Virus record (IMG/VR): IMGVR_UViG_3300021255_000062
Coordinates: 1-64,000 of that record
Reading direction: 5' to 3' (one strand)
Length of the DNA stretch: 64,000 nt
DNA from: a virus
Lineage: Duplodnaviria > Caudoviricetes
Position numbers and translations under genes: made by a program
In this document: piece by piece, positions 2,742 to 61,962 of the stretch
Numbering within the stretch: position 1 is the stretch's first letter
Layout: each line of letters begins with the position of its first letter
The notes under the pieces: model-generated
Told to the model about the DNA's origin: nothing
Seen by the model: the letters and a program-made list of their open reading frames with translations, nothing else
Databases searched by the model: none

Positions 2742-3877
2742 AAGTAATTATTGAAGGAATAAATTTTTATGAATTAGAAGCGATGAAATATTACAGCCCC
2801 TCAACCTCATGGAGCGCAGAAAAAAAGAAACAAAATGCCGAGCAAAAAATCTTTAGCGGCGATTGGCTAGGGAGTATGAAAAAGGACGGAACTTTTTGTA
2901 TGTGTGGGCGTAGTTTAGAAGGAGAAATTTTTCTTCGACCGCGCGCCCGCAACGTAAAAAAAGAGTTTGTTAATAAGGTTGATTGGGTTCCGCAATTTCA
3001 CAACTTCCTCAACTCAATTAACCCCGGAACAGTATTTCTTGGAGAAGTCTATCTCCCAAACAACGAGCAGGCAAAAGCAACTACATCTATTTTAAATTGC
3101 CTTCTTCCGAAATCTTTAAAACGTCAAGAAAAAGAAGAAAACAGACTTTATCTTTATATTTTTGACGTTTTGGCAGAAAATGGAAAGTCTTATTTGAATA
3201 AAAGGGCAGAAGAAAGATTCAATCTATTGGATGGTTTTAGCAAGGCCTATTCAGATGAATATGTATCCTGGGCAAAGTATTATGAGGGTAAAGAGCTTTG
3301 GAATAAACTTCAAGAATATCTTGCCGAGGGTCGTGAAGGTATGGTAATTACTCATAAAGATTCTCCCTATGATCCCGGGAAACGTAGTGCAAAAAGAACT
3401 CTTAAAATTAAAAAAGAACTTCAAGAAACTATTGATTGCGTAATTATGGGAGCGAATGGTCCCTCTCGCGAATATAATGGGAAGGAAATTGAGTCTTGGC
3501 CTTATTGGTTTGACGAGTCAACTAATCAATTTATTACATCCAAAGACTATCTTGATACTTATCATACTAATGTTTATGCTGCTTACGTCGATGGCGCGCC
3601 AGTGAGGCCAGTAACTAAAAACTGGTTCTATGGCTGGGCTGGCTCACTTAAACTTGGATTGTACGATGGAGATAAGTTAGTTCATGTGGGTGATTTAAGC
3701 GGCGTGACTGATGAAATGAAAGAAAATTGGAAAGACTATATAGGTACTGTTGTTGAGATTAGTTGTATGGAAATTACCGAAAACCAGCAAGGCGGAAAGG
3801 GTTTTCGTCACCCCAAACTCATTAATATTCGAAAAGATAAAGAGGCTAAAGACTGTACTATTGATCAAATTTTATAG
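2738..3877 (+). CDS. ATP-dependent DNA ligase
   Basis: KKDG motif I, LGEVY, FDVL, EGMVI, KIKK, OB-fold RHP...IRKDK; ATGA overlap start. Confidence 0.85.
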   Translation: MKVIIEGINFYELEAMKYYSPSTSWSAEKKKQNAEQKIFSGDWLGSMKKDGTFCMCGRSLEGEIFLRPRARNVKKEFVNKVDWVPQFHNFLNSINPGTVFLGEVYLPNNEQAKATTSILNCLLPKSLKRQEKEENRLYLYIFDVLAENGKSYLNKRAEERFNLLDGFSKAYSDEYVSWAKYYEGKELWNKLQEYLAEGREGMVITHKDSPYDPGKRSAKRTLKIKKELQETIDCVIMGANGPSREYNGKEIESWPYWFDESTNQFITSKDYLDTYHTNVYAAYVDGAPVRPVTKNWFYGWAGSLKLGLYDGDKLVHVGDLSGVTDEMKENWKDYIGTVVEISCMEITENQQGGKGFRHPKLINIRKDKEAKDCTIDQIL

Positions 3878-3890
3878 AAAGGAGAACACT

Positions 3891-4430
3891 ATGGAAGTCA
3901 TCAAAAATAATTGTAGTCAAACACAAATGTTTGAAGTAACTTGTCCTCATTGTGGTTCTATATTAAGGTGTACACTAGAGGAAAAAGAAAATAGTTCTTG
4001 TCCAGTCTGCGGCCGCTCGCTAAGTCATACAGAAGATTCAACAAATACACATTCACCTAAAGAATTACATTGTGACAAATGTAATCATAATTTTTTTGTT
4101 ACTGATTACGAAGGTATAGGTATGTATGGTGGATACTATTCTTACTGCCCTGAGTGTTGTGCTATTGTCTATGCCGATGATGGGATAGAAGTAACCACAG
4201 AAAATCTTGCGCTGGAATATTTCTCTCCTTTAGGTGAAGACGTAAAAAAAATCAGTTTCCCCGAAATTAAAAAATGGATTAAAACGGGGGTAGATTATCT
4301 TAAGAGCCATCCAGGTGAATACATGTGGTATATATGTAGCGGTGATAGTTTTGTTCTTGTAAGTAGAGACGATAATGAATTTTATGTAATGTGGACAAAT
4401 AATTATAGAGATGTGTGGGTAACTAAATAG
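3891..4430 (+). CDS. multi zinc-ribbon hypothetical protein
   Basis: AAAGGAG RBS at ATG 3891; CPHC, CPVC, CDKC, CPEC. Confidence 0.7.
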   Translation: MEVIKNNCSQTQMFEVTCPHCGSILRCTLEEKENSSCPVCGRSLSHTEDSTNTHSPKELHCDKCNHNFFVTDYEGIGMYGGYYSYCPECCAIVYADDGIEVTTENLALEYFSPLGEDVKKISFPEIKKWIKTGVDYLKSHPGEYMWYICSGDSFVLVSRDDNEFYVMWTNNYRDVWVTK

Positions 4431-4446
4431 AAATAATGCAAATAAT

Positions 4447-4470
4447 AAGGCGAGGTCTTTCCTCGCCTTA
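4447..4470. terminator. bidirectional intrinsic terminator between convergent units
   Basis: AAGGCGAGG-TCTTT-CCTCGCCTT hairpin. Confidence 0.75.
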
Positions 4471-4487
4471 AATTTTTATTGGGCTAT

Positions 4488-4715: not shown

Positions 4716-4749
4716 TATAACACCTCAAATATAGCTATGCTAGTTAATA

Positions 4750-5381: not shown

Positions 5382-5394
5382 TTAGTACCTCCCG

Positions 5395-5622: not shown

Positions 5623-5639
5623 TTAATATCACCTTCCCG

Positions 5640-5879: not shown

Positions 5880-5883
5880 ATAA

Positions 5884-8659: not shown

Positions 8660-8672
8660 AATATCCTCCTTC

Positions 8673-13515: not shown

Positions 13516-14049
13516 CTATTTGTTCATTTCTGCTATTGTCTTTTGAATAGATTCCTTAACTTTTACGTCTTGGGTTTTATTCATAAGCTCTTGTAATTCT
13601 TCAATTACTTCTTGTTTTCCAGTACGTGAATACCCACGATTATAGCCATTTCGTTCATACATAGGTAAGTCATATCCGGGATGATACATATATGAATTAC
13701 CATCATCCATATAACTATTTCGACCCATGCGGCCGCCATCGTAGCCCCTATCCATAGAATATCCATAAGGACCTCCTTGACCACCTCGGCTGCCACGCAT
13801 GTAAGAGTTCATCCCAGGCTGATAGTCAGCATCAATATAATATTTCCTCTGACTATAACCTCTATCCATACCCATTTCGCTTTCTTCTTTCTCTTTTTGA
13901 TAATGCTCAATTTTCTCTAAATTTTTTGCAGAATCTAATAAGTCCTTCAAAATATCTAAAGTTTCATGAGAAAGTTTACCTTCTTTAGCAATATCGTCTA
14001 ACTCTCCACAAATCATCGTACGGAGAGTATCCATTGTTTTCCTTTCCAT
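13516..14049 (-). CDS. hypothetical protein with central G/Y/M/R/S-rich low-complexity region
   Basis: GGAGG RBS; MDRGY repeats. Confidence 0.75.
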   Translation of the reverse strand: MERKTMDTLRTMICGELDDIAKEGKLSHETLDILKDLLDSAKNLEKIEHYQKEKEESEMGMDRGYSQRKYYIDADYQPGMNSYMRGSRGGQGGPYGYSMDRGYDGGRMGRNSYMDDGNSYMYHPGYDLPMYERNGYNRGYSRTGKQEVIEELQELMNKTQDVKVKESIQKTIAEMNK

Positions 14050-14524: not shown

Positions 14525-15331
14525 CTAAAAAGCACAACCGCATCCACATCCAGTTGTGGTACCGCAATTACATCCATTAGGATTCTGAACAATATAAGCG
14601 GGACGAGGTACCGGTGCAAGATACTGCTCCAGAGCAGAAGTCTGAGCTTCGTTATTTGCGATAATCGCAGCTGTCTGCGCGCCCTGAGAAGCGGCAAGAT
14701 TAGCCATTGTGAGTTGTCTTTCAAGATCTGCAATTCTCTCATTTTTTGCATCAATTTTATCTTGACACATTGTATCGAGAATTCTTTGGATTCCAGCATT
14801 TTGATTAGTGAGAATGTCACGAATGCCGTCACTAAGTGCTGTTCTGTCAGCACAATTTTCTGTAGCAATTGTGTATTTGAGGTCTGCAGAAGCTAATCTG
14901 TTTTCGCAGCAACAATCAGCGAATTGAGATTGAAGTGCAAAATTCTGTTGCATATTAGCCATTTGACGTGCATTACTAGCAATTTCAGCTTGAGCAAAAC
15001 CATTAGAAATTGCGCTATTTGCTCCCGCAAATCCATTGCACAGTGCGGCCGCAGTATCAACGAAACCGTTAGTTACAGCACTTTGTACTCCGTTAATTCC
15101 ACCCATAACTGCGGACTGGTCAAATCCTCTTTGAACTTCGTTACCTACGCCTCCACCGTAGCCGTAGCCACCGAATCCATTACCCCAGTTACCGTTAAAC
15201 ATGAAAAGGAATAAAATAATAAGCCACCAGGCGCCATCTCCGCCCCAGCCGAAACCATTGTTTCCGTTATTTCCATTTCCAACTACAGCAGCCACGTCAG
15301 CAGCACTTAATTCTCCACTTGTTAAAGACAT
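14525..15331 (-). CDS. Gly/Asn-rich, hydrophobic-segment plus coiled-coil protein with CCC and Cys-rich tail
   Basis: AGGAGG RBS before ATG 15331; GFGWGGDGAWWLIILFLF, DCCCEN, GCNCG...CGCGC. Confidence 0.8.
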   Translation of the reverse strand: MSLTSGELSAADVAAVVGNGNNGNNGFGWGGDGAWWLIILFLFMFNGNWGNGFGGYGYGGGVGNEVQRGFDQSAVMGGINGVQSAVTNGFVDTAAALCNGFAGANSAISNGFAQAEIASNARQMANMQQNFALQSQFADCCCENRLASADLKYTIATENCADRTALSDGIRDILTNQNAGIQRILDTMCQDKIDAKNERIADLERQLTMANLAASQGAQTAAIIANNEAQTSALEQYLAPVPRPAYIVQNPNGCNCGTTTGCGCGCAF

Positions 15332-15387
15332 ATATCGTCTACCTCCTATGTAAGAAAAACAATATAAGATAGACACAAGACTGAATT

Positions 15388-21553: not shown

Positions 21554-24500
21554 TCACGAAAGGGGAGCATATTTAATATTCAATGCCCCATCTTCATCGA
21601 ATATAACGAAATTACCAACTCTTAATTCAGATTCTATTACGCCTTGGCTAATGTTTAATTGGTTCGAATTAATCCAAGCAACTTTATTACCACCCTGCAA
21701 AAAAGCCAATTCATTATTAGTAATCTGTGTCTTAAATGCGTTGTCGCTACCGTCTGTATTCCTTGCTCCTATGGTTAATCCAGCATTTTCGTCGTCGGGA
21801 TTTGTGTTGAAATCTAAGTAATAATTTCTAAGATTATTATAGTCATCAACTATGTTGGATAATTCATCATATTTTTGATTAATTTTTACTACCTCTCCCG
21901 CAGTTTCGGAAGCGGTCTTAGAAACTTTGGCTACTTTATCATCTATTTCGTCAACAGCACTGTCTACTTTAGACAAGTCTCCTTGGGTAATTGTTAAATC
22001 TTCTCGAACACCTGCTATGATACTATTGGTATTACTGATATCCGTCTGCACATCTTCGGGAGCAGGTGCCCAAGTAGTAGCTTTGTCACCTTTTTCCACC
22101 ATAACCCTTCGAACAGACACCGTTCCACTGTAATAATCAAATCGTATATTAGACATGAGCTGGCCAGAGTATGTTCCATCAATCATATCTTGAGTTATCA
22201 GAAACCAAGTATTAATATAACCTTCTTTGGATTCAGACGCCATGATCGCTTCAATTTCCGACTGCTTTTGTCCTCCCCATTCGGAGGTGGCAAAATTCAT
22301 GGATGCCCAAGGTGACCCATTATGATTTTTATTTCCTTGAATATACGATCTTTTAGTTCCTGTCCCAGTAGCCACCCAGTCAGAAGAAAATTTAATGTCG
22401 AAACTTATTTGAATCTTGTCACCGACTTTTGCATCTTGAATGTCTGAAATATAAAGTGGTTCTAAGACGGTAGTACCAGACGAAACTAAACCGAATAAGT
22501 ACGCAGTTTTATTAGTGCCGTCCGTGATTGTATATGAGCGCCATTCATCAGATGTTCCTTTAGCGAGGTTTCTTCCGCCAATTTTAATATTGCTATTTAA
22601 CGCAGCATCCGGCAGGTACCCTACTGATATCGTCCCAGCTTTAATATTAGAAGCATTGATATTAGTCACAGTTACTTTAGAAGCATCAATCGTACCCGTA
22701 GTAATATGCCCACCATCGATGATTGTCGTAGTATCGTCTTTCAGCGGAGTGGTACAAGTAACCGTTCCACTAACCACCTTTTTCTGTTTAGCCACAAATA
22801 ACACTGGATAACTTGAATCATATGCTGGTCTTTTTGTTGTCCAAGTGTCCGGCTTGTAGCCAGTTTCAGTCACCCACGTGTTATTTTCATCAACCGACGA
22901 AGTGCCTGAAGCTTTAGAAATATAAATGTACTGTTCCTCAGATACAGCTGATGTCTTAGGCGCCGCTGCATTTGCGGTGGCCTGAGCTGATGCTGCGGTA
23001 GTTGTAATGCTGCTTATAGCCTTAAAACTTCTTGGTGGATTGTATGTCTCACATTCTGTGAAAACTGCCTCAGATGCGGTTTCCACGCATTTACCAAGCA
23101 CCATATCAGTTGCTTCTACCCATGTCCAATCCGCAGTATCTGCGGCAGCTGGCGCTGAGAGCTTTGTGTTATATTTCCATCCACTTGCATACCATACGGG
23201 ATATATTGTTCCTGTGGTAGACGTTGCAGACGAGAGCCTTAGTACGAGGTAAACCGGAATGTTGTACGGAAGAGCCGAATTCGGATTGTATTCTACATTC
23301 GGCACTGTTCTTTTGACACCATTCCACATCGCCCAACCTGCTGCCTGTGTTACTGTGCCAGTCTCAGGATCTAGTTTGCAGATCTTTGCCTCTCCACCAG
23401 CATAAGTAGTTCCTGCATTTGAATCCCATAGAATAGTAAAACCACCTACTGCATTTTGAACTGCGCTGCTTGCAGCTCCCTTCGCATCATATGCGGCATC
23501 GGCGCTAGACTTGATAGCATTGAATGTTGCTGTTCCGTCTATTTCTATCTTATTTGCGGCAATCTTTATCCCTTCCGGAGCAACATTAATAAGCGATTGA
23601 ATAAGATGCTGACCACCTTGTGCCGCAGTTGTATCATCTTTAGTCGCCTTAATAAGAACATTATCATTCGTAATTTTTAATTCAGCTTCTGACGCATAAA
23701 GTTGTGTTCCAGAGTATGGCTTATATGGACCAGCATATTCACCTTCATATATAGAAATACGAAGCTCATAGTCAATAGTGTCTCCAACTGCACATCTCTG
23801 TACAATGGCGCCCAGTCCATCAACTGTACCCGTCCAATGAGAAGAATCCTCTGGTTCAGATGTTTTGACAAATCTCTTTATATAAGGAGTGTTAGAATCT
23901 TGAGGTAAGTTCTTTATTACAATATAAGTATCGCTTCGATCTCCCTCTAAATTTTTCTTGCAATTTCCACCCCAAAATTGGCTGTTATTATTTTGTACAA
24001 CATAAATATTGCTATCTGTTGTACTACCTATAGTACTGTGATTATTCCTAACTTCATATAAAAACGTATAGTCTGAATTTGGCTGTATAGATTCACACCT
24101 AATAGGTCTTGGATCCGATCGCACTACAGCAGATGTATTATTAGTACACTGGACTCGCACCCAACCATCGCCCATGTCAGTATAGGTAAATAACGAATTA
24201 AAACTACCGGTTGTCCAGTAGTCGTTTATTTTATATGGAGAATATGAAAACCACGGACTGAGATTTGGTTGTGCTAGTTGATATGCTTCGGTTTTGGTAG
24301 CTCTTAAAATAATGGCATCAGCATTATTAGATATGCTTGTCTCAGCAGAATTCATCCTTACTGAAGCTGTGCCATCCTGCATTAACCAATTAGTACCATT
24401 ATATGTAAATGTGAATGTTGAACCGGCCGCCCACTTATACTCCGCTTCTGTCAGATTGCCGTTAGCGTAGGTCTTAATAGGCTTTGCACCTTTAGAATTA

Positions 24501-34322: not shown

Positions 34323-34337
34323 AAAATTTGCTATAAT
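34308..34337 (+). promoter_or_regulatory. sigmaA-type promoter
   Basis: TTGACT-18-TATAAT with TG. Confidence 0.65.
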
Positions 34338-34369
34338 AAAAGAGAAGAAAGAGAATTGAGGTAATTGAT

Positions 34370-35386: not shown

Positions 35387-35463
35387 TAACTCCGCGGCAG
35401 AAGCCGGGTATAAAAAATAAAAATAAACTTACGACAGTAAGGCCCGACAGGGTAAGGAGGATT

Positions 35464-47165: not shown

Positions 47166-47687
47166 ATGGCTAAATGTAGATTATGTGAAGCTATTATTGA
47201 TAAAGAAAAAGACGATTGGGTTATGCCAAGTAAAAATTATTATTATCATAGACAATGCTATAATAATTGGAAAAAAGCCCAACCAAAAAATGATGAAGGT
47301 TATATTGATTTAATTTATGACTTTATTGCAAGAGATTTGAAGGCATCTTATGATTGGCACATTTGTGAAGCCCAAAGAAAAAAATTTATAAAAGAAAATA
47401 AAATGACCAATAAGGGTATTTTATTTGCGTTGAAATATTTTTATGAAATTAAACATGGCAATTGGGAAAAGGGACATGGCGGAATTGGTATCGTTCCTTT
47501 TATATATAGTGATTCTTGTGCTTATTGGGCGGCAAGAGAAAGACAATCTGCTGGGACAATTGCAGTAATTGAGCGTCAAATGCGCGAAGCCGCAAATAGA
47601 AAAACGATTTCGATAAAAAAGAAAGAAACAAAATCAAAATATGAGATTGATTTTAGTGTGTTGGATGATTTGGAGGATGAAGAGTGA
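47166..47687 (+). CDS. Zn-finger replication protein (SPbeta YorH-like position)
   Basis: CRLC...HRQC; GIGIVPFIY; directly precedes helicase. Confidence 0.65.
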   Translation: MAKCRLCEAIIDKEKDDWVMPSKNYYYHRQCYNNWKKAQPKNDEGYIDLIYDFIARDLKASYDWHICEAQRKKFIKENKMTNKGILFALKYFYEIKHGNWEKGHGGIGIVPFIYSDSCAYWAARERQSAGTIAVIERQMREAANRKTISIKKKETKSKYEIDFSVLDDLEDEE

Positions 47688-50323
47688 TAGATAAACGAGA
47701 TACTCAACAAATACTCGGCTGTCTAATGAAGAAACCGCAGTTATTAAGTGAGATTGATAAATATTCATTTATCTTAACTGATTTTCCTACCAGGTTTGAA
47801 CGGTCGATATTTATGGCAATAAATGGGCTGTATAGGAATGGAGCCACGAAAATACAGCCTATTGATATAGAAAATTTTATAGAACCAGACCAAGTATCAG
47901 CGAAATTATTTAAAGATAAAAATGGAATTGAATATCTACAGGATATAATAGAATTATCAGAAATTGATAATTTTGACTTCTATTATAACAGATTTAAAAT
48001 GTTTAACCTGTTGAAAGATTTAAAAAAACAGGGATTTGATACAACTGAGTTTTATTGTGAGGATTTAACAAACCCAAAAGCTGAAGAAATTAATCAGGCT
48101 TTTAATATGTTAAGTCCGAAGATAATAACTGATGCGGTTAGAAAAAAATTATTAGGTGTTGAAGCAAAATATGAAACAACTGATGAGATAGAAATTGAAG
48201 AAGCCGCAAAAGGAATGAAAAAGCTAATCAATGAACTTGGCGCGGCATATGAAATTGGTATGCCAATACAAGGTGAAATTTTTAATCAAGTTATTGATGG
48301 AGCAAAGAAAGGGACTCTGACAATTAGGTCTGCCGCATCTGGGGTAGGAAAGGCATTACCAAATAGTACAATTATACCTACGCCAAGCGGAAAAAGAAAA
48401 GTTTCCGATATAAAAGTTGGAGATTATCTTTTTGATGCTTTTGGAAAACCGACCAGAGTATTAGGAGTATATCCGCAGGGTCGAAAGGAAGTTTTATATA
48501 TTCGTTTTAAAGACGGACGAGTGGCTAGATGTTGTGAAGATCATCTTTGGAGCTATTGTACTAGAGGGCAAAAAGAATATAGTAAAAAAGAACGCAAATT
48601 CTATACAAAAACATTAAAGGAAATTAGACAATTATCACTTCAAGATTCGCGTGGTGCTTATAATATTTTAGTACCAATGAATTATGCAGTTGAATATGAA
48701 GAACAGTATTATTATATTCCACCATATATAATGGGATTAGCTCTTGGTGATGGAAGTTTTAGACAAAATGAATCTAATAAAGCTTTTCAATTCTCAAGTG
48801 AAGATGAATTTTTACCAAATTATATTGGTTTTCATATGAATTGGGAAGTAAAGAAAAATAAAGCTAATTTTGGATGGTATTTTAGTTTTAATGAAAAAAC
48901 ACCACATAAAAATGTTTGGGTTCAAGATTTTCTAAAACAATATCCGAAACTGTTAAACACTAAATCTGAGACAAAGTTTATTCCGGAAGAATATTTATAT
49001 GGAAGTGTAGAGCAGCGTTTTGATTTACTAAGTGGTTTATTAGACACTGATGGCAGTGTAGATTCAAAGGGTCGAATTAGTTATTATACAATTAGTCCTT
49101 TCTTGCGCGATAATGTAGTAGAATTATGTCATAGTTTAGGTTTTAAAACAACTGTTTTAGTTGACAGCCATAAAGATACAAATATCGGATTTGTTATTCG
49201 AATAACAGGTAGACCAGAGGATAAGATAAAATTATTTAAATTACCTCGTAAAAAAGAAATAATTCAAACGTGGTACAATAACAATACAAGAAAAGAATCT
49301 AACGAATTTAATCCAATAATTGAAATCGGTAGCTGTGGTTATACAGAAGAAATGACTTGCTTTATGGTTGATAATAAAGAACATCTTTTCTTAACTGAAG
49401 ATTATATTGTAACTCACAATACGAGGAACGCAGTAGCCGATGCTTGTTATTTAGCTTATCCAATTAGATATAATAGCACAACTTGCGAATGGGAACAGGT
49501 TGGAAACTGCGAAAGAGTTTTATTCATTGTGACAGAGCAAAGATTTAAAGAAGTCAGAACTATGATTTTAGCTTATTTAACAGATATAAATGCAACAAGA
49601 TTTAAATACGCAGATTTTTCTGACAGAGAACGCGCGGTTATAACACAAGCGATTGCATTGATGGAGAAGTATAATAATTTAATTCTTGTAAAAATGCCTA
49701 ATCCGACAATTGAGTCGGTTAAAGCGATTGTGAGAGAAAATTGTATTGTATATGATATAGGTTATGTTTTTTACGATTATATATTTATTGGACCGTCATT
49801 GTTAAGCGAATTTAAAGGTTTTGCTTTAAGAAATGATGAGGTGCTGCTGATGTTTGCAACAGCGCTGAAAGATTTAGCAGTTGAATTGAACGTAGCAATG
49901 TTTACGTCAACCCAGCTTAATGCAAAAGGTGATGATAATAAAGACATAAGAAATGAAGGTTCATTAGCGGGCGGCCGCAGTACGATTAATAAGGCTGATA
50001 ATGGCGCAATTATGGCAAGACCAACAAAAGAAGAGTTAGAAGTTCTTGCACCGCTATATGAAAATCACCCAGAGAATAAACCGAATTTGGTTACTGATAT
50101 TTTTAAGGTTAGAAGTGGCGAATGGACTCAAGTAAGAATTTGGTCTGATATGAATTTGGGAACCTTAAAGAAAAGAGATTTATTTATAACGGATTCGCGG
50201 ATGGACCCAGTTGAAGATTTCTATACAAGAACTGATTATAATATTAAAAGTTGGGAAGATTCGGAAGATGAATATTTAAAGATAATAGTAGAAAGGTTAA
50301 ATAATGGTGAGATAATTGATTGA
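47684..50323 (+). CDS. dnaB: DnaB-like replicative helicase interrupted by an intein
   Basis: AASGVGK|intein|TR Walker A; FYDYI Walker B; TSTQLN; KVRSG. Confidence 0.85.
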   Translation: MIDKRDTQQILGCLMKKPQLLSEIDKYSFILTDFPTRFERSIFMAINGLYRNGATKIQPIDIENFIEPDQVSAKLFKDKNGIEYLQDIIELSEIDNFDFYYNRFKMFNLLKDLKKQGFDTTEFYCEDLTNPKAEEINQAFNMLSPKIITDAVRKKLLGVEAKYETTDEIEIEEAAKGMKKLINELGAAYEIGMPIQGEIFNQVIDGAKKGTLTIRSAASGVGKALPNSTIIPTPSGKRKVSDIKVGDYLFDAFGKPTRVLGVYPQGRKEVLYIRFKDGRVARCCEDHLWSYCTRGQKEYSKKERKFYTKTLKEIRQLSLQDSRGAYNILVPMNYAVEYEEQYYYIPPYIMGLALGDGSFRQNESNKAFQFSSEDEFLPNYIGFHMNWEVKKNKANFGWYFSFNEKTPHKNVWVQDFLKQYPKLLNTKSETKFIPEEYLYGSVEQRFDLLSGLLDTDGSVDSKGRISYYTISPFLRDNVVELCHSLGFKTTVLVDSHKDTNIGFVIRITGRPEDKIKLFKLPRKKEIIQTWYNNNTRKESNEFNPIIEIGSCGYTEEMTCFMVDNKEHLFLTEDYIVTHNTRNAVADACYLAYPIRYNSTTCEWEQVGNCERVLFIVTEQRFKEVRTMILAYLTDINATRFKYADFSDRERAVITQAIALMEKYNNLILVKMPNPTIESVKAIVRENCIVYDIGYVFYDYIFIGPSLLSEFKGFALRNDEVLLMFATALKDLAVELNVAMFTSTQLNAKGDDNKDIRNEGSLAGGRSTINKADNGAIMARPTKEELEVLAPLYENHPENKPNLVTDIFKVRSGEWTQVRIWSDMNLGTLKKRDLFITDSRMDPVEDFYTRTDYNIKSWEDSEDEYLKIIVERLNNGEIID
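48353..49420 (+). mobile_element. intein (356 aa, Ala1, class-3 signature) with LAGLIDADG homing endonuclease
   Basis: starts ALPNSTIIPTP; block B CCEDHLW; GLALGDG and GLLDTDG; block F MTCFMV; ends IVTHN followed by Thr. Confidence 0.92.
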
Positions 50324-51368
50324 TTATAAAGGTATAATTGAACAATTAGATACACAAAAAGTTATTCAACTAATGGAAACATTAGGCGTGGATAATTATA
50401 TAGAAAAACCAGGATACATAATTTTCCCCACTATATGTCATAATGAAGATTCGGAAGAAGCATCAATGAAATTATATTACTATGAAAATAGTCATATATT
50501 TCAATGCTACACTGAATGTAGTTCAATGTCTATTTTTCAATTTCTCAAAAATTATTATGAAGCTCGATCTTATGATTATGATTGGTATGAAGATATTTAT
50601 AAAGTAATACTCAATTGTAGTAATTATCGACAACTGAATGGTTTCGCACCAAAGAAGTATAAAAGCGTACGTTCTATTTATATGACCCATCAGGAAGTAA
50701 AACTACCAACTTACTCCAATGGAATTATAGACTGTTTTACTAAATTTTATCCACCCGAATGGCTGAATGATGGAATTACTAAACAATCGATGGATAATTT
50801 TAATATACGCTACTCAGTCCCTCAGAATAAAATAATTATTCCTCATTATAATGCTAAGGGTGAATTAGTAGGAATACGAGGGCGCGCCCTCAATGAATGG
50901 GAAGTTGAAAATGTAGGCAAATATATGCCTGTTCAAATAGAGGGTAAGTGGTATAGTCATCCACTTTCACTAAATCTTTATGGATTAAATAAAACAAAAG
51001 AAAATATTAAAAGAATTGGAGTGTGTTTTCTTTGTGAAGGAGAAAAATCTGTTTTACAAATGGAAGGGTGGGACTTTGCCAATTGCGGAGTTGCAGTATG
51101 TGGTAGTCAATTTAATAAGCATGCCCTTAAGCTTCTATTAAAAGAAGCACGACCACGAGAAATTGTAATTTGTTTCGACAAAGAAGAAGAACCGGGTAGT
51201 GAAAAATATTTTAATAAACTTTATTCTATAGGAGAAAAATACAAAAATTATTGTGATTTTTCTTTTATATATGATAGAGAAAAATTATTAGATATGAAGG
51301 ATTCACCAACAGATAAGGGAAGCGAAATCTTTTGGAAACTATATAAAAAAAGAGTGAGGGTTAAATAA
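50316..51368 (+). CDS. DNA primase
   Basis: TICHN...CYTEC zinc site; IIIPHYN..GELVGIRGR; EGEKSV and ICFD TOPRIM. Confidence 0.85.
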   Translation: MIDYKGIIEQLDTQKVIQLMETLGVDNYIEKPGYIIFPTICHNEDSEEASMKLYYYENSHIFQCYTECSSMSIFQFLKNYYEARSYDYDWYEDIYKVILNCSNYRQLNGFAPKKYKSVRSIYMTHQEVKLPTYSNGIIDCFTKFYPPEWLNDGITKQSMDNFNIRYSVPQNKIIIPHYNAKGELVGIRGRALNEWEVENVGKYMPVQIEGKWYSHPLSLNLYGLNKTKENIKRIGVCFLCEGEKSVLQMEGWDFANCGVAVCGSQFNKHALKLLLKEARPREIVICFDKEEEPGSEKYFNKLYSIGEKYKNYCDFSFIYDREKLLDMKDSPTDKGSEIFWKLYKKRVRVK

Positions 51369-53489: not shown

Positions 53490-53490
53490 T

Positions 53491-53519
53491 TTGTTTTTTT
53501 AATAAAATTTTGATATAAT
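53491..53519 (+). promoter_or_regulatory. sigmaA-type promoter for HNH-dnaE unit
   Basis: TTGTTT-17-TATAAT with TG. Confidence 0.65.
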
Positions 53520-53555
53520 ATATATAGAATAAATAGAGGAGGCGTGTGAAAACTT

Positions 53556-54188
53556 ATGCAAGGAATTGATATAACTGGACAACGCTTTGGTCATTTAGTT
53601 GCTTTAAAGTTAATACCCAAAGAAGAACGTACTTGGAGTAATAAAGAAAGGGCTTGGTTATGTAAGTGTGATTGTGGTAATGAAGTCATAGTGCGACAAA
53701 GAAATTTATTAAGCAGTAGACCAACCCGTTCTTGTGGATGTTTGCGTAAAAAAGAAGCGTTCAAGTCAACTAATATGATAAAAGGGTTAGAAGATGAATT
53801 TTTAGATAGTTTTAATGATTTTGATAAATTTCTTTTTATTCATAGAACTATTCGCACTGCAATAGGAAATTTTAGTAGTTTAGAAAAGGATAAATATAAA
53901 GAACTAATAAACCACTTTTATAATCAAAAACAATTTAATGATATATATAATTTTTGGTTATCTCAAGAAAAAACTGATACTTTTTATGATTGGGCAAAAC
54001 CTTCTATTGACCATATTATTCCCAAAGCAAAGGGAGGCACTAATGATTTAAACAACTTACAATATCTTACAGTTTTTGAGAATTTAAACAAACGAGATAT
54101 GACAATGAATGAGTGGAATAATTTTAAAAAACTAACTCACACAAGTAGTGATTATTTTTATGAGTCAATTAAGGAGGTGATGCAATGA
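53556..54188 (+). CDS. free-standing HNH homing endonuclease
   Basis: N-terminal DITGQRFG.L...WLCKCDCGN...SCGC domain; C-terminal PSIDHIIP..KGG.N...NLQ.L...EN..K. Confidence 0.85.
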   Translation: MQGIDITGQRFGHLVALKLIPKEERTWSNKERAWLCKCDCGNEVIVRQRNLLSSRPTRSCGCLRKKEAFKSTNMIKGLEDEFLDSFNDFDKFLFIHRTIRTAIGNFSSLEKDKYKELINHFYNQKQFNDIYNFWLSQEKTDTFYDWAKPSIDHIIPKAKGGTNDLNNLQYLTVFENLNKRDMTMNEWNNFKKLTHTSSDYFYESIKEVMQ

Positions 54189-57100
54189 AAAATCAGTTAA
54201 GATACCCAGGATCGCTCCATAATCATACTGATTTTTCTTAGGTGATCCAATTTTCGTTTGCGTGACAGTATTAACACTGTCGAGTCATTAATAGATTATG
54301 CAATAGAACTTGGTCATGAAGTAGTAGCGATTACTGAACATGATACAATAGCTAGTGCTATCAGAGCGGAAAAATATTATAGCAAAATTAAAAAGAATAA
54401 TCCGGACTTTAAACTTATTAGAGGTAATGAGATTTATCTTGTAAGAAATGGATTAAATAATGATAACTTTAAAAAAGAAACAGATAGATATTTTCATTTT
54501 ATTCTGTTAGCAAAGGATCTCGAAGGTCATAGACAGATTCGCGAGATTTCTTCGCGTGCTTGGATGAGAAGTTACATGGCGCGCCGTATGAGAAGGGTCC
54601 CAACTTATTATCAAGATTTAATTGATGTAATTGGAAAGAATCCTGGCCATGTGGTTGGGTGTACGGCATGTTTAGGTGGGTGTCTTCCAACTCAACTTAT
54701 CCGTAATAGAGATACTGGCGCACCGAGTATGGACTTGATTAAACGATGGATTGTTCAGATGCAAGGTATTTTTGGAATAGATGACTTTTATTTCGAAATG
54801 CAACCATCATTTAATAAAGACCAGATTTATGTAAACAAAAAATTAGTTGAACTTAGTGAAGAAATGGGTATCAAATATATTATAACTAACGATGCTCATT
54901 ATTTAAAAAAAGAAGATAGACCAATTCATAAGGCTTTTCTTAATGCTCAGCAAGGAGATAGAGAAGTTGACGATTTCTATGCAACGACCTATTTAATGAG
55001 TGATGAAGAAATTTATCACTATATGGAAGAATCATTAGGAGAAACAGTTTTACAAAAAGCATATCAAACAATAGAAGAAATTAAAGATAAGTGTGAAGAC
55101 TATTCATTAATGAAACCGCTAAAGATTCCAAGATTGAATTGGAAGACTTTTGATGTCAAATCAGATGCGGTAAAATTTTTAAGTGATAAAATCCCTTATT
55201 TAAAAAGATTTCTCGAATCAGAATATGCAGAGGACAGACATTTAGCATATGCAATTATTGATAGATTAACCAATAGTAAAGCAGAAGATGAATTATGGAA
55301 CAAAGAAACTTATGAAGAAATTAATGCATGTCTTAAAGATACGTGGGTATCATCAGAAGTAAACGGAAGTAGATGGAGTGCTTATTTCTTAAATCTTCAA
55401 AATATAATTGATGCTTGTTGGGACGCAGGAACTCTTGTTGGCTGCGGCCGAGGCTCTGGAGTTGGTTTTATTTTGTTATATCTATTAGGTATAACTCAGA
55501 TAAATCCACTAAGAGAAAAAAGTCAAACCAAAAGATGGAGATTTCTTAATCCAGAGCGTGTGTCAGTCCTTGATGTAGATATTGATATCGAGGGCGGACG
55601 GCGTGCAGACGTATTAAAAAAGTTTCGTAAAATTTATGGAGAAGATAGGGTCGCTAATGTATTAACATTAAAAACAGAAAAATCTAAGTCTGCAATTCAA
55701 ACAGCTTGTCGTGGATTGGGAGTAGACAGTGATATATCTGCATATCTTTCTTCATTCATTCAAGCTGATAGAGGACAGCTTCGAACTCTTAAACAAACTT
55801 TTTACGGAGATCCCGATAATGGGATTAGTGCCTCCCATCAGTTCAAATTAGAAATGGAAGAGAACTATCCAGAAGTCTGGGAAGTGGCGCAAAGAATTGA
55901 AGGATTAATCAATGGCTGTGGGGTTCACGCGGGTGGAGTTATCTTTGTAGATGAGCCTTTCACAAAGTCAACCGCATTAATGCGAGCGCCAAAAGGAGAA
56001 ATTATAACTCAATTTGATCTCCATGATGCGGAAGATACAGGACTTATTAAATATGATATCCTATCCGTTGAAGCATTGGATAAAATTCACAATTGTATTG
56101 ATTTGATTTGTAAATATGGCTATGAAAAAAGAGAAGAAACATTAAAAGATACCTATGAAAAAATTATTGGTATATATAATCTTGAACGTGAAGCGCCAGA
56201 GATGTGGCAGATGTGTTGGAATCATGAGGTAATGAGTTTGTTCCAAATGGAAAAACAATCTGGAGTAAACGGAATTGCAGCAATGAAACCAACTTCTGTA
56301 GATGACTTGGCAATTCTCAATTCAGCAATTCGTCTTATGGCGACAGAAAAAGGTGGAGAAATGCCAGTTAATAAATTAGCTAGATTTAAAGCGCATCCAT
56401 CTGATTGGGATTATGAATTACAAAAATATGGACTTGGCGCTGAAGCAAAAGAAATTCTTGAACCAGTTCTTAATGTATCTTACGGTTTATGTATTGCTCA
56501 GGAACAATTTATGCAACTTGTACAGCTACCTGAATTAGGTGGATTCAACCTAACCTGGGCAGACAAGTTAAGAAAGTCAATTGCAAAAAAGAATCCGGCA
56601 CAGTATGAAGAGTTAACCAAAGAATATTTCAAGGTTATAAAAGAAAAAGGTTTAGATGAGCGACTTTGTACTTATGTATGGAATGTACTTATTGCAATGA
56701 GTAAAGGTTATGGATTTAACTTATCTCATACGTTGGCTTATTCATTAATCGGATTGCAAGAGTTAAATCTTGCATATCGTTATCCAACAATTTTATGGGA
56801 TTGCGCTTGTCTTATCTCTGATAGCGGCGGTGTCGATAAAGAAGAAGAGGAAGAAGATGGAAATAACGAAGAAACAACTAGAGGAAATGTTTGGGATTCG
56901 TTTGATGACATATCAATGGGTGTTTTTACAGATGATGAAGATGGAGAAGTGGGAGACATTGATTTATCTCCCACCAAGAAGAAATCGTCAAACAGAACTG
57001 CTAACTATGGCAAAATTGCTACAGCAATTGGAAAAATAAGTCAAGAAGGTGTAGAAATTATAGCCACAAATATAAATAAGTCTGAATACACCTTTGCACC

Positions 57101-58205
57101 AGATGTAGATAATAATAGAATTATTTATGGTTTAAGTGGTATAACTAGAGTTGGTGATGATTTAATTCGTTTAATTATGAATAATAGACCGTATGAGTCA
57201 ATAGAAGATTTTATTGGTAAAGTTAAAGTTAATAAACCACAAATGATTAATTTGATTAAGTCAGGCGCATTTGATGAGTTATATGGCGGCGATCGTGTAG
57301 TTGCAATGAATAAGTATATTGATTTAATTGCCGACAAAAAGAAAAGAATGACATTACAAAATATGCAAATGTTAATTAATTTTGGTTTCATTCCAGAGGA
57401 ATATGATTTTCAATGTAGGGTTTACAACTTTAACAAATATTTGAAAAAACATAAAATTGATAATTCATATGGTATTGATAATGTTGCTCTAACTTTTTAT
57501 TCAAACAATTTTGATATGGATTTATTAACTCCTTCTGATGAATATGTATTTACTATAAAGCAAACTGATTGGGATAAAATTTACAAAAAGCAAATGGATA
57601 TTATTCGTCCATTTATTAAAGAGAACAATCAAGAGTTGTTAGATAAAGTAAATAATAAACTTAGACAAGATTTATGGGATAAATATTGCTCTGGAACTTT
57701 AAGTCAATGGGAAATGGATTCTATTTCTTGCTATATTCATGACCATGAATTAAAGAATCTTAAAAATGGATTTTATGGATTTGCAGAATATAGTAAACTA
57801 CCAGAGAATCCGATAGTAAGTTATGAATTTCGTTCTAAAGAAACTGGTCAAAAGATTCCATTATTTAAAATTTGTCGTATTGCTGGAACAGTATTAGACA
57901 AAGATAAAAATAAGAAAATGATTACTTTGTTAACCAATGATAGTGTTGTAACTGTAAAAATATTTGGTGATGCTTTTACTCATTATGATAGACAAATATC
58001 AGAAAAGCAACCAAATGGAACTAAAAAGGTAGTAGAAAAGTCTTGGTTATCAAGAGGAAATAAAATTATAGTAACGGGGATTAGAAGAGAAAATAATTTT
58101 ATAGCGAAAAAATATAAAAATACTCCATATCATTTAGTTGAATTAATAACTTCAATTAGTGATGATGGTTATATTACAACTCAAAAGGAGCGAGTTGAAG
58201 TATGA
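54185..58205 (+). CDS. dnaE: DNA polymerase III alpha (DnaE-type), reading frame interrupted by a 10-nt insert at 54239-54248
   Basis: AAGGAGGTGA RBS and ATG 54185 give MKNQLRYPGSLHNHTDFS*, continuing in +1 frame as SNFRLRDS; AITEH, TNDAHY, GRGS, LDVDID, HAGG, KYDILS motifs. Confidence 0.9.
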
Positions 58206-58375
58206 TAAAAACAATTGGTGATTTAATAGAAGAATTAAAAAAGTATCCTCAAGATGCTTTAATATTTGATTTAAATGGAGAACGTCTTGAAGGTCTAAAA
58301 TATTGTGAAGAAATTTATTTGGGAGATCCAGCGAATCCCCGAGTTGAAATTACCGAAGGATATAAACTAGTATGA
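58202..58375 (+). CDS. hypothetical protein (57 aa, below ORF-track cutoff)
   Basis: ATGA overlaps at both ends; TIGDLIEELKKYPQD motif. Confidence 0.6.
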   Translation: MIKTIGDLIEELKKYPQDALIFDLNGERLEGLKYCEEIYLGDPANPRVEITEGYKLV

Positions 58376-59490
58376 GTTATGGACTTTATGATGCTGATTT
58401 ACAATTTTATCCAATTCCATTCTACAACTTGGAATTAATGAAGCTATCCTCCTATTATAAACACAAAAGAGAAATAGTCGGGTTATCTCCCGACTTTTCT
58501 CCCCAAAGATATAGTAATTTTATTGTACGCCAAGATTTTTATAATCCACATACCCAAATCTATAGGGGAAATAATATCACCTATGGCGGCCGCGCATTCG
58601 ACGGTGAAAAATATAAGCCTCTTCCCCTAGAGATAGAAATGATGCAACCAGATATTTCTATATATGAAAGAATAAAACTACGTAATATCAAATGGAATAA
58701 TAAATCAGCAATAAATACAATGCGGCGAGCTGAACATATTCGTCTTTCCCTAGATGAAAAAACCATATGGAAAAACTTTGAAAAACAACTTTCTCATAAC
58801 CCGAAGTGCTTTGGAATTATATTTCATGATTATAACTTAAATCAAATTGACGGTGCATATGAGTTAATAAAAAAAGAATTACCAAATTGGATACCAAATC
58901 AAATCGGACGAAGGATTGGTATGAAATTTCCAGTTCAAGTAAATAATAAAACCGATCTATGTAAGTGGCTGTCTTTAAAATCACTAAACAAATATTTTTC
59001 TTTAAACCATAATGGATTAATTACTAATGATTACATACCAGAATTAGATGAAATCAGAAAACAAAGTCTTAGTTTTAAACAAGCCACTATGGATATATCC
59101 AAGACTTATACTCAAGAAGAACTCATAAATGGAGGAATTCAACGTATTTTCCGCACTATTATAAATTTACGTAGTTATCGATTAGTTTTTCCACTTATAT
59201 ATGATGAGAATCTTTTTGTTGATGAAGAGTGGAAAAAAGTAATGCAATTGATTAATCGTTATAATATTCATTTAATTAAAAGCTATGATAACGATTTTTT
59301 TAGAAGAGTAGAACCTTTTGAAACTCTTTTTAGTTACTGTTATGCAATCATTAGACAACCAAAAATTAAAGAATCTTTACTTAGTAAAGAATCAATAGAA
59401 TCAATTTTTCAATTCGTAAGAGAAAATAATTATGAATTATTTAAAGACTTCTATGAATATAGAGGAGGAGAGGTAAGAAATGACAGGTAA
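58372..59490 (+). CDS. degenerate radical-SAM-associated family protein (no CxxxCxxC)
   Basis: GLYDAD....NLELMKLSSYYK...GG..F....LP.EIE...PD.SIY N-terminus. Confidence 0.55.
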   Translation: MSYGLYDADLQFYPIPFYNLELMKLSSYYKHKREIVGLSPDFSPQRYSNFIVRQDFYNPHTQIYRGNNITYGGRAFDGEKYKPLPLEIEMMQPDISIYERIKLRNIKWNNKSAINTMRRAEHIRLSLDEKTIWKNFEKQLSHNPKCFGIIFHDYNLNQIDGAYELIKKELPNWIPNQIGRRIGMKFPVQVNNKTDLCKWLSLKSLNKYFSLNHNGLITNDYIPELDEIRKQSLSFKQATMDISKTYTQEELINGGIQRIFRTIINLRSYRLVFPLIYDENLFVDEEWKKVMQLINRYNIHLIKSYDNDFFRRVEPFETLFSYCYAIIRQPKIKESLLSKESIESIFQFVRENNYELFKDFYEYRGGEVRNDR

Positions 59491-59674
59491 AGAAATTAAA
59501 GAAAAAATTAATTTCAATAACAAGAAGATTCAATCCATATTGGATCCGACAGTATTTATTTTACAACCAGAAGTTCAAAAATACATGGAAGAAAACGAAT
59601 ATTTAAAAAGTATTTGTGAACATGAATATGAAAACGGAGTTTGTATCTACTGTGGTAAGCCAATAAATCCTTAA
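59480..59674 (+). CDS. small Zn-binding protein
   Basis: CEH...CIYCG; GAGGAGG RBS. Confidence 0.65.
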   Translation: MTGKEIKEKINFNNKKIQSILDPTVFILQPEVQKYMEENEYLKSICEHEYENGVCIYCGKPINP

Positions 59675-59703
59675 AATAATTTATATATCTAGGAGGCGTT
59701 ATC

Positions 59704-61962
59704 ATGCAACACGTTAAAAAAAGAGATGGCAGAATCGTTAAATTTAATAAGAATAAAATTGTAGATGCTATATTAAAAGCTTTTAAACAAGTAGACGGTG
59801 AAATTTCCGACTACGCTTTAGAAAAAGCAAATAATATAGCTGATTTTATTAAAAACACAGACGATGAAATTTTAAATGTAGAAGAGATTCAAGACCTTGT
59901 AGAAAATGGATTGATGAGTCTAAAGAAAAAAGATGTAGCAAGGGCATATATTCTTTATCGTCAAGAAAGAGCTAGAATAAGAAATTGGAATACCGCTACA
60001 ATGGGTAAAATGGCAGAAAAACTAAATGCCTTAAACGTTCAAAATCAAAATGCTAATGTCGATGAATATTCATTTGGCGGCCGCAGAGGTGAGGCGGATT
60101 CAGTTATTTTTAAACAATATGCTCTTGATAATTTAATGAGTGAAACATCTCGCAATAACCATTTAAACAATGAAATTTATATTCATGATTTAGATAGTTA
60201 TGCACTTGGTATGCATAACTGTTTATCAATTCCTTTTGATGATTTATTAGCAAATGGTTTTAATACAAGGCAAACTGATGTACGACCAGCCAATTCTATT
60301 AATACAGCCTTTCAATTAGTTGCGGTTATTTTTCAGCTTCAATCACTTCAACAGTTTGGAGGTTGTTCTGCTACACATTTGGATTGGACTATGGTTCCAT
60401 ATGTAAGAAAAAGTTTTAGAAAACATTATATTGATGGTTTAAAATATATAGAGAACTTTAATGATGAAGAATATTTTAACCATATTCCTGAAAATGCATG
60501 CATTGAAGATGCAGAATACAAAAGTCGACCAAAAGCATATCGCTATGCCATGGATATGACCGAAAAAGAACTGCGCCAGGCGGTTGAGGGTATGTATCAT
60601 AATCTAAATACACTTCAATCTCGCAGTGGCAATCAATTACCATTCACTTCTATCAACTACGGTACTTGTACTTTACCAGAGGGGCGCATGGTAATTAAAG
60701 CTTTATTAGAGGGCAGTATCAATGGTGTAGGTAAACTTCATAAAACCCCAATTTTCCCATGTGGAATTTTTCAATGTATGAAAGGAGTAAATCGTGAACC
60801 TAGAGATCCCAATTATGACCTTTATAAACTCGCTCTCAAATCAACTGCCAAACGACTTTATCCTAACTATGCCAACGTGGACTGGTCAGGAAATGCAGGA
60901 TATGATCGTAACGATCCATGCACCTATTTCTCTACAATGGGATGCCGCACGGCAAACGGTTTTGATATCAATGGGTTTGGACAACTCAAAGATGGCAGGG
61001 GAAATATCTGTCCAGTAACAATTATTCTACCAACATTGGCTATGGAAGCTAGAGAGAAAGTTGAACAAGATAATAAGTATACTCCTTTTGCAATTACTAC
61101 AGCAGAAGATTGGGGAATAGAACATGATAGTTATGTGGAAGAATTTATAAATCTTCTTGATGAAAAAATTCATGAAGCTAAAGATATGTTAATTGAACGT
61201 TTCGAATATATTTGTTCCCAAGACGCATCGAGTGCAAAGTTCATGTATGAAAATGGGACAATGTTGGGATATAAACCAGAAGAAGGAATTAGAAGTGCAT
61301 TAAAGCATGGTACATTAGTAATTGGACAATTAGGACTTGCCGAAACATTGCAAATTCTTATTGGTAAAGATCATACGACTCCAGAAGGAATGGAAATTGC
61401 TAAACGTATTGAACAACTTTTTAAAGATAGGTGCGCTGAATTTAAGCAAAAATATAAACTAAATTTTGGCGTATACTACACACCAGCTGAAAATCTTTGC
61501 TATACAGCTATGAAAAAATTTAAAGAAACTTATGGTGAAATTCCTAATGTAAGCGATAGAGAATATTTTACTAACTCAATGCATGTACCTGTATGGAAAG
61601 AAATTTCTCCATTTGATAAAATTGACATAGAAGCAGAATTAACTGGTTACTCTAGTGCTGGATGTATTACTTATATAGAATTAGAGGGCGCAGTATTGAA
61701 GAATCTACCCGCCCTTGAACAAATTGTTAATTATGCCATGGATAAAGATATCCCATATTTTGCAATTAACGTTCCTAATGATACTTGTCTTGAATGTGGA
61801 TGGACTGGTGAAATAGGAGAACAATGTCCGGAATGTGGTTCTAAATCTATACAAAGACTTAGAAGAGTAACCGGATACTTAACTGGTGACTATAAAACTG
61901 CTTTTAATTATGGAAAACAGAAAGAAGTCGAAGAAAGATTCAGACATAGTGATAAATTATGA
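59704..61962 (+). CDS. nrdD: anaerobic (class III) ribonucleoside-triphosphate reductase with ATP cone
   Basis: VKKRDG ATP cone; IYIHDLD, HNC, MGCR, TPAENL, YFTNS, CLEC/CPEC, RRVTGYL glycyl-radical motif. Confidence 0.95.
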   Translation: MQHVKKRDGRIVKFNKNKIVDAILKAFKQVDGEISDYALEKANNIADFIKNTDDEILNVEEIQDLVENGLMSLKKKDVARAYILYRQERARIRNWNTATMGKMAEKLNALNVQNQNANVDEYSFGGRRGEADSVIFKQYALDNLMSETSRNNHLNNEIYIHDLDSYALGMHNCLSIPFDDLLANGFNTRQTDVRPANSINTAFQLVAVIFQLQSLQQFGGCSATHLDWTMVPYVRKSFRKHYIDGLKYIENFNDEEYFNHIPENACIEDAEYKSRPKAYRYAMDMTEKELRQAVEGMYHNLNTLQSRSGNQLPFTSINYGTCTLPEGRMVIKALLEGSINGVGKLHKTPIFPCGIFQCMKGVNREPRDPNYDLYKLALKSTAKRLYPNYANVDWSGNAGYDRNDPCTYFSTMGCRTANGFDINGFGQLKDGRGNICPVTIILPTLAMEAREKVEQDNKYTPFAITTAEDWGIEHDSYVEEFINLLDEKIHEAKDMLIERFEYICSQDASSAKFMYENGTMLGYKPEEGIRSALKHGTLVIGQLGLAETLQILIGKDHTTPEGMEIAKRIEQLFKDRCAEFKQKYKLNFGVYYTPAENLCYTAMKKFKETYGEIPNVSDREYFTNSMHVPVWKEISPFDKIDIEAELTGYSSAGCITYIELEGAVLKNLPALEQIVNYAMDKDIPYFAINVPNDTCLECGWTGEIGEQCPECGSKSIQRLRRVTGYLTGDYKTAFNYGKQKEVEERFRHSDKL

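Follow-up and report, generated by a model that had tools for sequence, protein, structure and literature searches.

GC-only palindromes as the conspicuous part of a tendency toward GC-only runs in an AT-rich phage genome and its clade

The window, positions 1 to 64,000 of the IMG/VR virus record IMGVR_UViG_3300021255_000062, covers the first 64 kb of a phage genome that is complete at 125.9 kb and bounded by direct terminal repeats (the genome under study, designated G000). The GC-only palindromes found inside many of its genes are what stands out most from a tendency, shared across the clade, toward GC-only runs of at least 7 bases. The enriched feature is any such run rich in alternating GC/CG steps, and it reflects a preference of G/C for standing next to G/C that acts on the duplex, is strand-symmetric, graded by stability, cooperative and clade-specific, and is filtered by restriction avoidance. 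The GC content was computed as about 34.5% for the window and 35.2% for the whole genome, correcting the figure of about 32% in a preliminary description of this DNA. For comparison, a search based on Sak4 yielded 80 loci, and seven whole genomes of relatives (G001, G002, G003, G004, G010, G011, and G012) were compared.

Excess of GC-only words in the window

The preliminary description listed 14 palindromes, eight copies of GCGGCCGC and six of GGCGCGCC, all of which were found exactly in position. Each of the 14 lies within an open reading frame (ORF), on one strand or the other, as had been stated, and the CGGCCG and GCGCGC cores reported near 1963, 24423, 28104, 38853, 40197, and 55444 were also present. 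Dinucleotide shuffles gave expectations of 0.07 for GCGGCCGC and 0.06 for GGCGCGCC, and the observed counts were reached in none of 100 shuffles. When synonymous codons were permuted inside each gene (the synonymous shuffle), the expectation was 1.2 for the eight copies of GCGGCCGC, 0.19 for the six of GGCGCGCC, 2.6 for the 24 copies of GCGCGC, and 42 for the 92 GC-only runs of at least 7 bases. In a stricter shuffle, third bases were permuted only among codons sharing the first two bases, the amino acid, and the following base, so that the protein, the codon families, and all dinucleotides were preserved; the corresponding expectations were 1.6, 1.1, 7.9, and 58, and the observed values were reached in none of 300 shuffles. 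The excess of GC-only words in the window is thus confirmed, having survived the shuffle preserving codon usage and dinucleotides under which the preliminary description considered that it might vanish.

When all k-mers were scanned against the synonymous shuffle, the top words were GCGC (1.9-fold), GCGCG (3.4-fold), GCGCGC (6.5-fold), and GGCGCGC/GCGCGCC (8.7-fold, 30 copies against 3.5 expected), followed by GCGGCCG, GCGCGG, and GGGCGC, with GCGCGG/CCGCGC occurring 25 times against 5.6. The non-palindromic TGCGCGC was a further top word in G000, where non-palindromic GC-only words were as enriched as palindromic ones, and the palindromes CCGCGG, GCCGGC, GGGCCC, and CCCGGG showed no enrichment by the same comparison. 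The insides of the given GC-only runs were then simulated by a strand-symmetric Markov chain. Palindromic 6- and 8-mers together numbered 20 in G000 against about 12 simulated (p of about 0.03–0.045), 32 against 31 in G003, and 57 against 71–76 in G001. With a two-letter alphabet, 1/16 of the 8-mers are palindromic, and the NotI and AscI sites are therefore a by-product of the runs. A palindrome-specific process was rejected, since the simulation of runs gives about the same number of palindromes.

The likeness to a highly iterated palindrome (HIP), which the preliminary description had proposed, was also rejected, because no word dominates, non-palindromes stand among the top words, and palindromes occur at about the level of chance given the runs. 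Moreover, the relatives carry other words, so that no one word is common to the clade and the preferred words differ by lineage. What is shared with a HIP is an enrichment seen at the DNA level in all reading frames. Thus, GCGCGC occurred 8, 14, and 10 times in codon phases 0, 1, and 2, against 1.0, 1.5, and 1.7 expected, a 6–9-fold enrichment in each phase, which answers the earlier question about the reading-frame distribution; GGCGCGC was enriched both ways round, the sense-strand counts being 17 and 12.

The enrichment of GCGCGC in every codon phase indicates that the effect lies on the DNA and not on codons or codon pairs. An origin at the level of translation, through clusters of particular codons or codon-pair bias, is largely refuted by this phase independence and is hardly credible. 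The runs do use GCG, CGC, GGC, and GCC codons, and the 16 tRNAs of the phage serve A/U-ending codons only, which implies a codon supply that differs between phage and host. However, enrichment is equal in the three phases, the bases in runs are spread evenly over the three codon positions (359/338/320), non-coding DNA has a run density at least that of genes (7 runs in 3.2 kb), and the excess survives shuffles that preserve protein, codons, and dinucleotides.

Shape, distribution, and turnover of the runs

Relative to the shuffle, run-length ratios were about 1.0 at lengths 1–5, 1.15 at 6, about 2 at 7–9, and 4–13 at 10–12, so that the excess sets in sharply at length 7. Most runs in G000 are 7–9 bp long, and their alternation is imperfect. 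At four-fold degenerate third positions, the probability of G or C climbed with contiguous flanking G/C, from 0.17 to 0.47 in G000, from 0.18 to 0.67 in G001, and from 0.21 to 0.63 in G003, reaching 0.73–0.79 when at least four G/C stood on each side; G and C increased equally, and strand asymmetry was absent. Furthermore, over the 36 GC-only hexamer classes, enrichment was correlated with nearest-neighbour stability in six genomes (rho −0.76 to −0.92, using energies of the SantaLucia set), and hexamers containing more alternating GC/CG steps were more abundant. As a separate observation on the base composition of G000, the homopolymers A8/T8 are almost absent (2 against 51 expected).

The runs are spaced in a nearly Poisson manner, with coefficients of variation (CV) of 0.83–1.15 across genomes. 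The spacing in G000, slightly more even than random (CV 0.83, p of about 0.02), was not reproduced in the relatives (CV 0.90–1.15). Around GCGCGC in G001, no extended motif or logo consensus was found, and the flanks of runs showed a modest preference for AGT/ACT only, AGT following runs in 8.5% of cases against 3.9%. These observations bear on the proposal that the words are bound or cut by a phage protein, be it gyrase, a winged-helix protein, the terminase, or a nickase; the preliminary description had likewise suggested sites for a phage protein. The phage encodes GyrA/GyrB and a small winged helix-turn-helix (wHTH) protein, and the flank preference would suit such a site; however, the runs have no fixed core, extended flank consensus, or orientation, their word sets differ between close relatives with the same proteins, and their positions are neither conserved nor regularly spaced. 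Recognition by a phage protein is accordingly very improbable, and flanks, orientation, and spacing gave no pointer to a binding site. Chi-like or uptake-sequence-like behaviour was likewise not found, in that there is no fixed asymmetric word and no orientation bias, both orientations of GGCGCGC being enriched. Nor do the runs have the long perfect purine–pyrimidine alternation, with CA/TG alternation favoured, of Z-DNA tracts: the ratios of the alternating neighbours were 0.62–0.66 for ACGCGC and GCACGC and 1.44 for GTGCGC. Literature searches on an excess of GCGCGC or other GC-rich words in phages, and on Z-DNA in phage genomes, turned up no account of this feature.

Runs of at least 7 bases occur at 3.5–6.6 times the expectation from base composition in G000, G001, G003, G010, G011, and G012, G001 having as many as 183 copies of GCGCGC in 121 kb. 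The four-fold cooperativity is shared by the six complete relatives of G000, with odds ratios of 3.0–7.2 over the seven clade genomes. The preferred words are GCGCGC-type in G001 and G011, CGGCCG and CCGCGG in the loci L014 and L047, and exclusively non-palindromic in G004. The last genome avoids GCGC (0.21 of expectation), CGCG (0.05), and GGCC (0.28), as well as ACGT and GATC, and enriches the non-palindromes GCCGCA, CGCCGC, and CCGCCG with a four-fold odds ratio of 3.0. That G004 clusters G/C while the palindromic tetramers are avoided further indicates that palindromy is incidental and that the word set is pruned by restriction avoidance. As the preliminary description had remarked of phages in general, other palindromes are avoided, and this avoidance coexists with the excess, GATC, CTAG, and CATG being depleted. 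Relative to expectation, GATC stands at 0.41 in G000, 0.09 in G003, and 0.00 in G004 and G002; G004 is also nearly without ACGT, CATG, and CGCG, and the G002 clade is without CCGG and CTAG.

The effect is absent from the distant G002 clade (odds ratio 0.3, an opposite trend) and from Enterococcus phage VRE9_4 (0.9), and is lacking in 36 Clostridia loci (1.3–1.6). The best candidate-host metagenome-assembled genome (MAG) has only 68 copies of GCGCGC in 2.9 Mb. The G/C-run habit is thus absent from this MAG and from the cultured relative. Comparison of gene content between run-rich and run-poor genomes, which is uninformative with just two genomes in the latter class, yielded no more than two small function-unassigned ORFs at genome positions 65554–65940 (phrog_1401) and 97013–97474. 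Among the genes of the clade, two paralogues match PHROG families of the DNA polymerase exonuclease subunit (DnaQ-like), at genome positions 101389–102027 and 104837–105541 (L137 17389–18027 and L138 837–1541); they are present in all seven genomes with G/C cooperativity and absent from G002. In two relatives, the coverage by long ORFs increased when TAG was read through, from 0.62 to 0.90 in G001 (L081–L087) and from 0.74 to 0.89 in G012 (L157–L163), G000 showing no such jump, which suggests reassignment of TAG in G001 and G012.

The runs turn over rapidly. Among aligned runs of G000, 24 of 68 are still GC-only in G003, 12 of 29 in G001, and 2 of 24 in G004; those retained lie at conserved residues, and the remainder at positions of average conservation. 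New runs form by several changes from A/T (W) to G/C (S), mostly synonymous, at aligned positions (for example, AGA GCT GGT to CGC GCC GGC), and at some aligned positions different relatives have different GC-only runs, as around 50683 and 52371. Four-fold substitutions were polarised by parsimony in nine sister-plus-outgroup triplets. With increasing flanking S, the W→S rate rose from 0.11 through 0.18 and 0.27 to 0.275, and the S→W rate showed no fall (0.31–0.47); the equilibrium implied by the polarised rates, 0.44, is close to the observed 0.45. These counts are limited by partial saturation of the four-fold sites (rates 0.1–0.47) and by a long-flank class of 63 and 66 events.

Origin of the runs

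We tentatively infer that the source of the runs is a non-adaptive W→S bias that grows with flanking G/C and stems from the replication or repair chemistry of the clade itself, an account to which we give not quite an even chance. By this account, W→S substitution would become likelier as the flanking G/C lengthens, either through G/C mispairs that, stacked on G/C neighbours, may evade proofreading, or through heteroduplex mismatches that in stable contexts may be corrected with a GC bias; lineage-specific restriction-site avoidance would then prune the permitted words. Frame independence, enrichment in both orientations, four-fold cooperativity, the run-length profile, the stacking-graded hexamers, the incidental palindromes, the behaviour of G004, the rise in W→S rate, the equal increase of G and C, the nearly Poisson spacing, the lack of a flanking consensus, the fast turnover, and the paucity of GCGCGC in the candidate-host MAG are all consistent with it. 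Several points weigh on the other side. No enzyme has been assigned to the bias, and the data do not separate a mutation bias from a fixation bias, whether by selection or by biased gene conversion. Saturation of the four-fold sites, parsimony, and a small long-flank class limit the polarised counts, and the threshold-like onset at length 7 would also fit a functional length requirement. Moreover, G002 shares a DnaE homologue (47% identity) yet shows the opposite trend, so that the polymerase by itself is no predictor of the effect, and a process encoded by the host is conceivable.

The sharp onset and the turnover also suit selection for a property of the duplex, namely, for short segments of G/C with the highest possible duplex stability, set in an AT-rich genome that the phage gyrase would supercoil. 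Such segments might clamp the duplex against stress-induced melting, or they might nucleate single-strand annealing of the Sak4/RecJ type and recombination-dependent replication, and selection would act on their density rather than on position or exact sequence. Abundance indeed tracks nearest-neighbour stability, the abrupt onset at about 7 bp fits this explanation at least as well as the substitution bias, and density is kept while positions turn over, with different GC-only runs at the same aligned positions. In addition, GyrA/GyrB, Sak4, RecJ, and a RuvC-like protein are encoded in all cooperative genomes, and G002 is without gyrase, though it has Sak4 and RecJ homologues; the slightly even spacing in G000 points the same way. 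However, that evenness is not seen in the relatives, the gyrase correlation hangs on one distant negative genome, the runs lie at protein positions of average conservation, and a neutral cooperative bias gives the same statistics. Selection on the duplex is the main rival of the substitution bias; we consider it unlikely, though by no means negligible.

A more specific proposal takes one of two forms. Either a phage process senses at least about 6 contiguous G:C pairs and converts neighbouring A:T to G:C, in analogy to GC-biased gene conversion or short-patch repair and possibly involving the PD-(D/E)XK-like ORF considered below, the GIY-YIG and UvrD-like proteins, RecJ, and the DnaQ-like proteins, or the clade selects the runs as duplex clamps or annealing nuclei for its gyrase-supercoiled AT-rich genome. 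In this explicit form, the proposal is possible but doubtful.

The preliminary description raised the possibility of methylation-linked biased repair, in which a C5 methyltransferase acting on GC-only palindromes would be coupled with Vsr-type T:G repair by the host or by the product of an ORF at 33918–34322 (+), there called Vsr-like. This 134-aa conserved ORF has a PD-(D/E)XK-type motif (RFDFYV...IELQGQQHY), its D...ExQ being typical of PD-(D/E)XK nucleases. It gave no Pfam hit and nothing relevant in a sequence search of the PDB, and its PHROG matches are homing/HNH endonuclease families. The best PDB neighbours found by Foldseek were I-Bth0305I (E 1.1) and Escherichia coli Vsr (E 1.7), neither of them significant, for a model of low confidence (predicted local distance difference test score, pLDDT, 66). 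The product thus appears at best weakly Vsr/I-Bth0305I-like, judging from this model; the Vsr-like label is plausible for the fold class, and its connection with the runs is unsupported, since no homologue was found, even by hidden Markov model profile search, in the run-rich G010 (run ratio 3.7). Conversely, a homologue is present in G004, so that the gene does not co-occur with run enrichment. The ORF is unusually conserved across metagenomes, having more than 500 homologues, of which the 120 listed are 62–99% identical. The adjacent genes encode a 338-aa protein, which has a GIY-YIG domain at its C-terminus, and a UvrD-like helicase; the three, at window positions 33918–36543 (+), possibly constitute a repair or homing module.

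For such a methylation-based origin speak the frame-independent enrichment, as in HIP1, the D...ExQ motif together with the structural neighbours named above, the position of the ORF beside the GIY-YIG-domain and UvrD-like helicase genes, and the link between HIPs and methyltransferases proposed for cyanobacteria (PMC4390886). However, a cognate methyltransferase was not found, PF00145 being absent from G000 and nine relatives (10 phage genomes searched), nor did Pfam Vsr (PF03852) give a hit in G000, and the words carrying T for C next to GCGCGC, CGGCCG, and GGCGCC are not clearly depleted (ratios 0.62–1.44). In addition, many words are enriched, including non-palindromes, with palindromes at chance given the runs; the presence of the ORF does not match that of the runs in G010 and G004; the same cooperativity is seen across lineages with different restriction-avoidance profiles, i.e., different hosts; and the candidate-host MAG is poor in GCGCGC. 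The methylation-linked repair suggested earlier is not supported by these results and appears quite improbable. We do not hold recognition sites, methylation, or any process specific to palindromes to be responsible for the runs.

Sites, genome context, and comparison with known systems

The 92 GC-only runs of at least 7 bases between positions 1 and 64,000 amount to about one per 700 bp and are mostly intragenic, with every codon phase and either strand represented. Among those that hold the listed palindromes, GGCGCGCC at 3593–3600 lies in the DNA ligase gene (2723–3877, +), GCGGCCGC at 4009–4016 in an ORF at 3750–4430 (+), GCGGCCGCC at 13729–13737 in an ORF at 13516–14049 (−), and a further GCGGCCGC at 15045–15052 in an ORF at 14525–15376 (−). 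In the tail region, the gene of a 1613-aa tail protein (21554–26395, −) holds both GGCGCGCCCC at 25269–25278 and GGCGCGCCGGG at 26028–26038, and that of a Dit-like distal tail protein (32330–33352, −) holds GGCGCGCC at 32658–32665. The ORF at 33918–34322 itself contains CGGCGGCCGCGCC (34037–34049, including GCGGCCGC), and the GIY-YIG-domain protein gene (34370–35386, +) contains GGGCGGCCGC at 34698–34707. Among the replication genes, the DnaB-like helicase gene (47684–50323, +) carries GCGGGCGGCCGC at 49967–49978, where relatives have GCTGGTGGTCGA or GCAGGCGGCCGA; the primase gene (50316–51368, +) carries GGGCGCGCCC at 50880–50889, retained in L002 and L006 and reading GGGCGCGCAC in others; and the DnaE polymerase gene (54258–58205, +) carries GGCGCGCCG at 54578–54586. 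The last two are GGCGGCCGCGC at 58585–58595, in an ORF at 58372–59490 (+), and GGCGGCCGC at 60076–60084, in the gene of the anaerobic ribonucleotide reductase NrdD (59704–61962, +).

Besides GyrB/GyrA, the UvrD-like helicase, the GIY-YIG-domain protein, the DnaB-like helicase, and primase, G000 encodes a Sak4-like ATPase, RecJ, DnaE polymerase, NrdD/NrdG, an ATP-dependent ligase, a dUTPase-like protein, a RuvC-like protein, siphovirus tail genes, and an endolysin. The DnaB-like helicase ORF (879 aa) is matched by phage helicases in two pieces, and its middle part matches records annotated as homing endonuclease or as (presumably intein-bearing) terminase; an intein insertion is thus likely from these matches. 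A free-standing HNH endonuclease gene (window 53556–54188, +) lies directly upstream of dnaE, and public contigs of the relatives break or diverge at about 53490–53530. The closest cultured relatives are distant, being the Enterococcus phages VRE9/EF1 and SPbeta-like phages with a Sak4 identity of 30–38%. Cultured phages gave no megablast match to the tape-measure-like gene, and none with a close GyrA, sought for the gyrase link, was present in the collection searched. Diverged relatives of G000 were found in goat and bovine gut samples, as assembled contigs of public runs, and a goat Eubacterium MAG has an endolysin that shares 67% identity with that of G000, which is no proof of the host. 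The tRNA genes form a 16-gene cluster on the minus strand at genome positions 115468–119149 (L138 11468–15149), all the anticodons serving A/U-ending or AT-rich codons and none serving GCG, CGC, GGC, or CCG; this set suggests a host richer in GC than the phage. All 22 genomic copies of the word GGCCGGCC lie within an approximately 14-kb region of small ORFs (genome 94174–107830, L137 and L138). Of these, about 16 survive the gene shuffle and are therefore located between called genes, and several abut CGAAC-N4-GTTC-like boxes; this repeat system is separate from the intragenic runs.

The make-up of phage genomes is usually attributed to host codon use and restriction-site avoidance. In the clade genomes examined, G/C-only runs are built up by a positive, cooperative force in spite of the strongly AT-rich background, and synonymous sites as well as some amino-acid sites are altered by it. 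If this force comes from biased mutation or repair, it would offer a clear example from nature of context-dependent fidelity or of biased gene conversion in a virus and would bear on models of phage evolution and on composition-based host prediction; if it is selection, it would point to a physical need of AT-rich phage DNA that has gone unrecognised. Should it be a process of the phage's own or active selection, it would amount to a new rule of genome composition written by the virus and not by the host. In practice, the rare-cutter sites NotI, AscI, BssHII, and EagI are unexpectedly frequent in these genomes, and k-mer-based binning or host prediction for these phages may be affected.

The nearest precedent is the cyanobacterial HIP1, GCGATCGC, with the alternate HIPs described by Elhai in 2015 (PMC4390886); a HIP is a single palindromic octamer of fixed sequence, associated with cognate orphan methyltransferases. 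Like HIP1, the phage runs are a genome-wide, DNA-level excess of GC-rich words in every reading frame, clade-specific and unexplained in origin; unlike HIP1, they have no single word, their palindromy is incidental, the words vary among relatives, and no phage methyltransferase was found. In E. coli, very short patch (VSP) repair through Dcm/Vsr leads to over-representation of the CCWGG site; it depends on Vsr and on a C5 methylase with a defined site, and neighbour words that contain T become rarer through it. The directional drive of the type T:G to C:G has its likeness in the phage W→S rate, which climbs with G/C context, whereas a defined site, a C5 methylase, Pfam Vsr, and neighbour depletion were not found in the phage. 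GC-biased gene conversion and context-dependent polymerase fidelity, in which neighbour stacking lowers proofreading, shift regional GC and resemble the phage bias in being sequence-non-specific, strand-symmetric, and stability-dependent, with no function needed; to our knowledge, such biases have not been known to build sharply delimited 7–17-bp G/C-only runs in a phage. Restriction-site avoidance acts in the same genomes (on GATC, CTAG, and CATG here, and on GCGC, CGCG, and GGCC or CCGG in G004 and G002) and shapes the surviving G/C words, but it removes words, whereas the phage runs are an excess. Finally, the GC clusters of yeast mitochondria, mobile inserted elements of 30–50 bp, are likewise GC-only islands in a very AT-rich genome; the phage runs differ from them in being 7–17 bp long and in that, at aligned codons, they have mostly arisen through single-base changes rather than as insertions.

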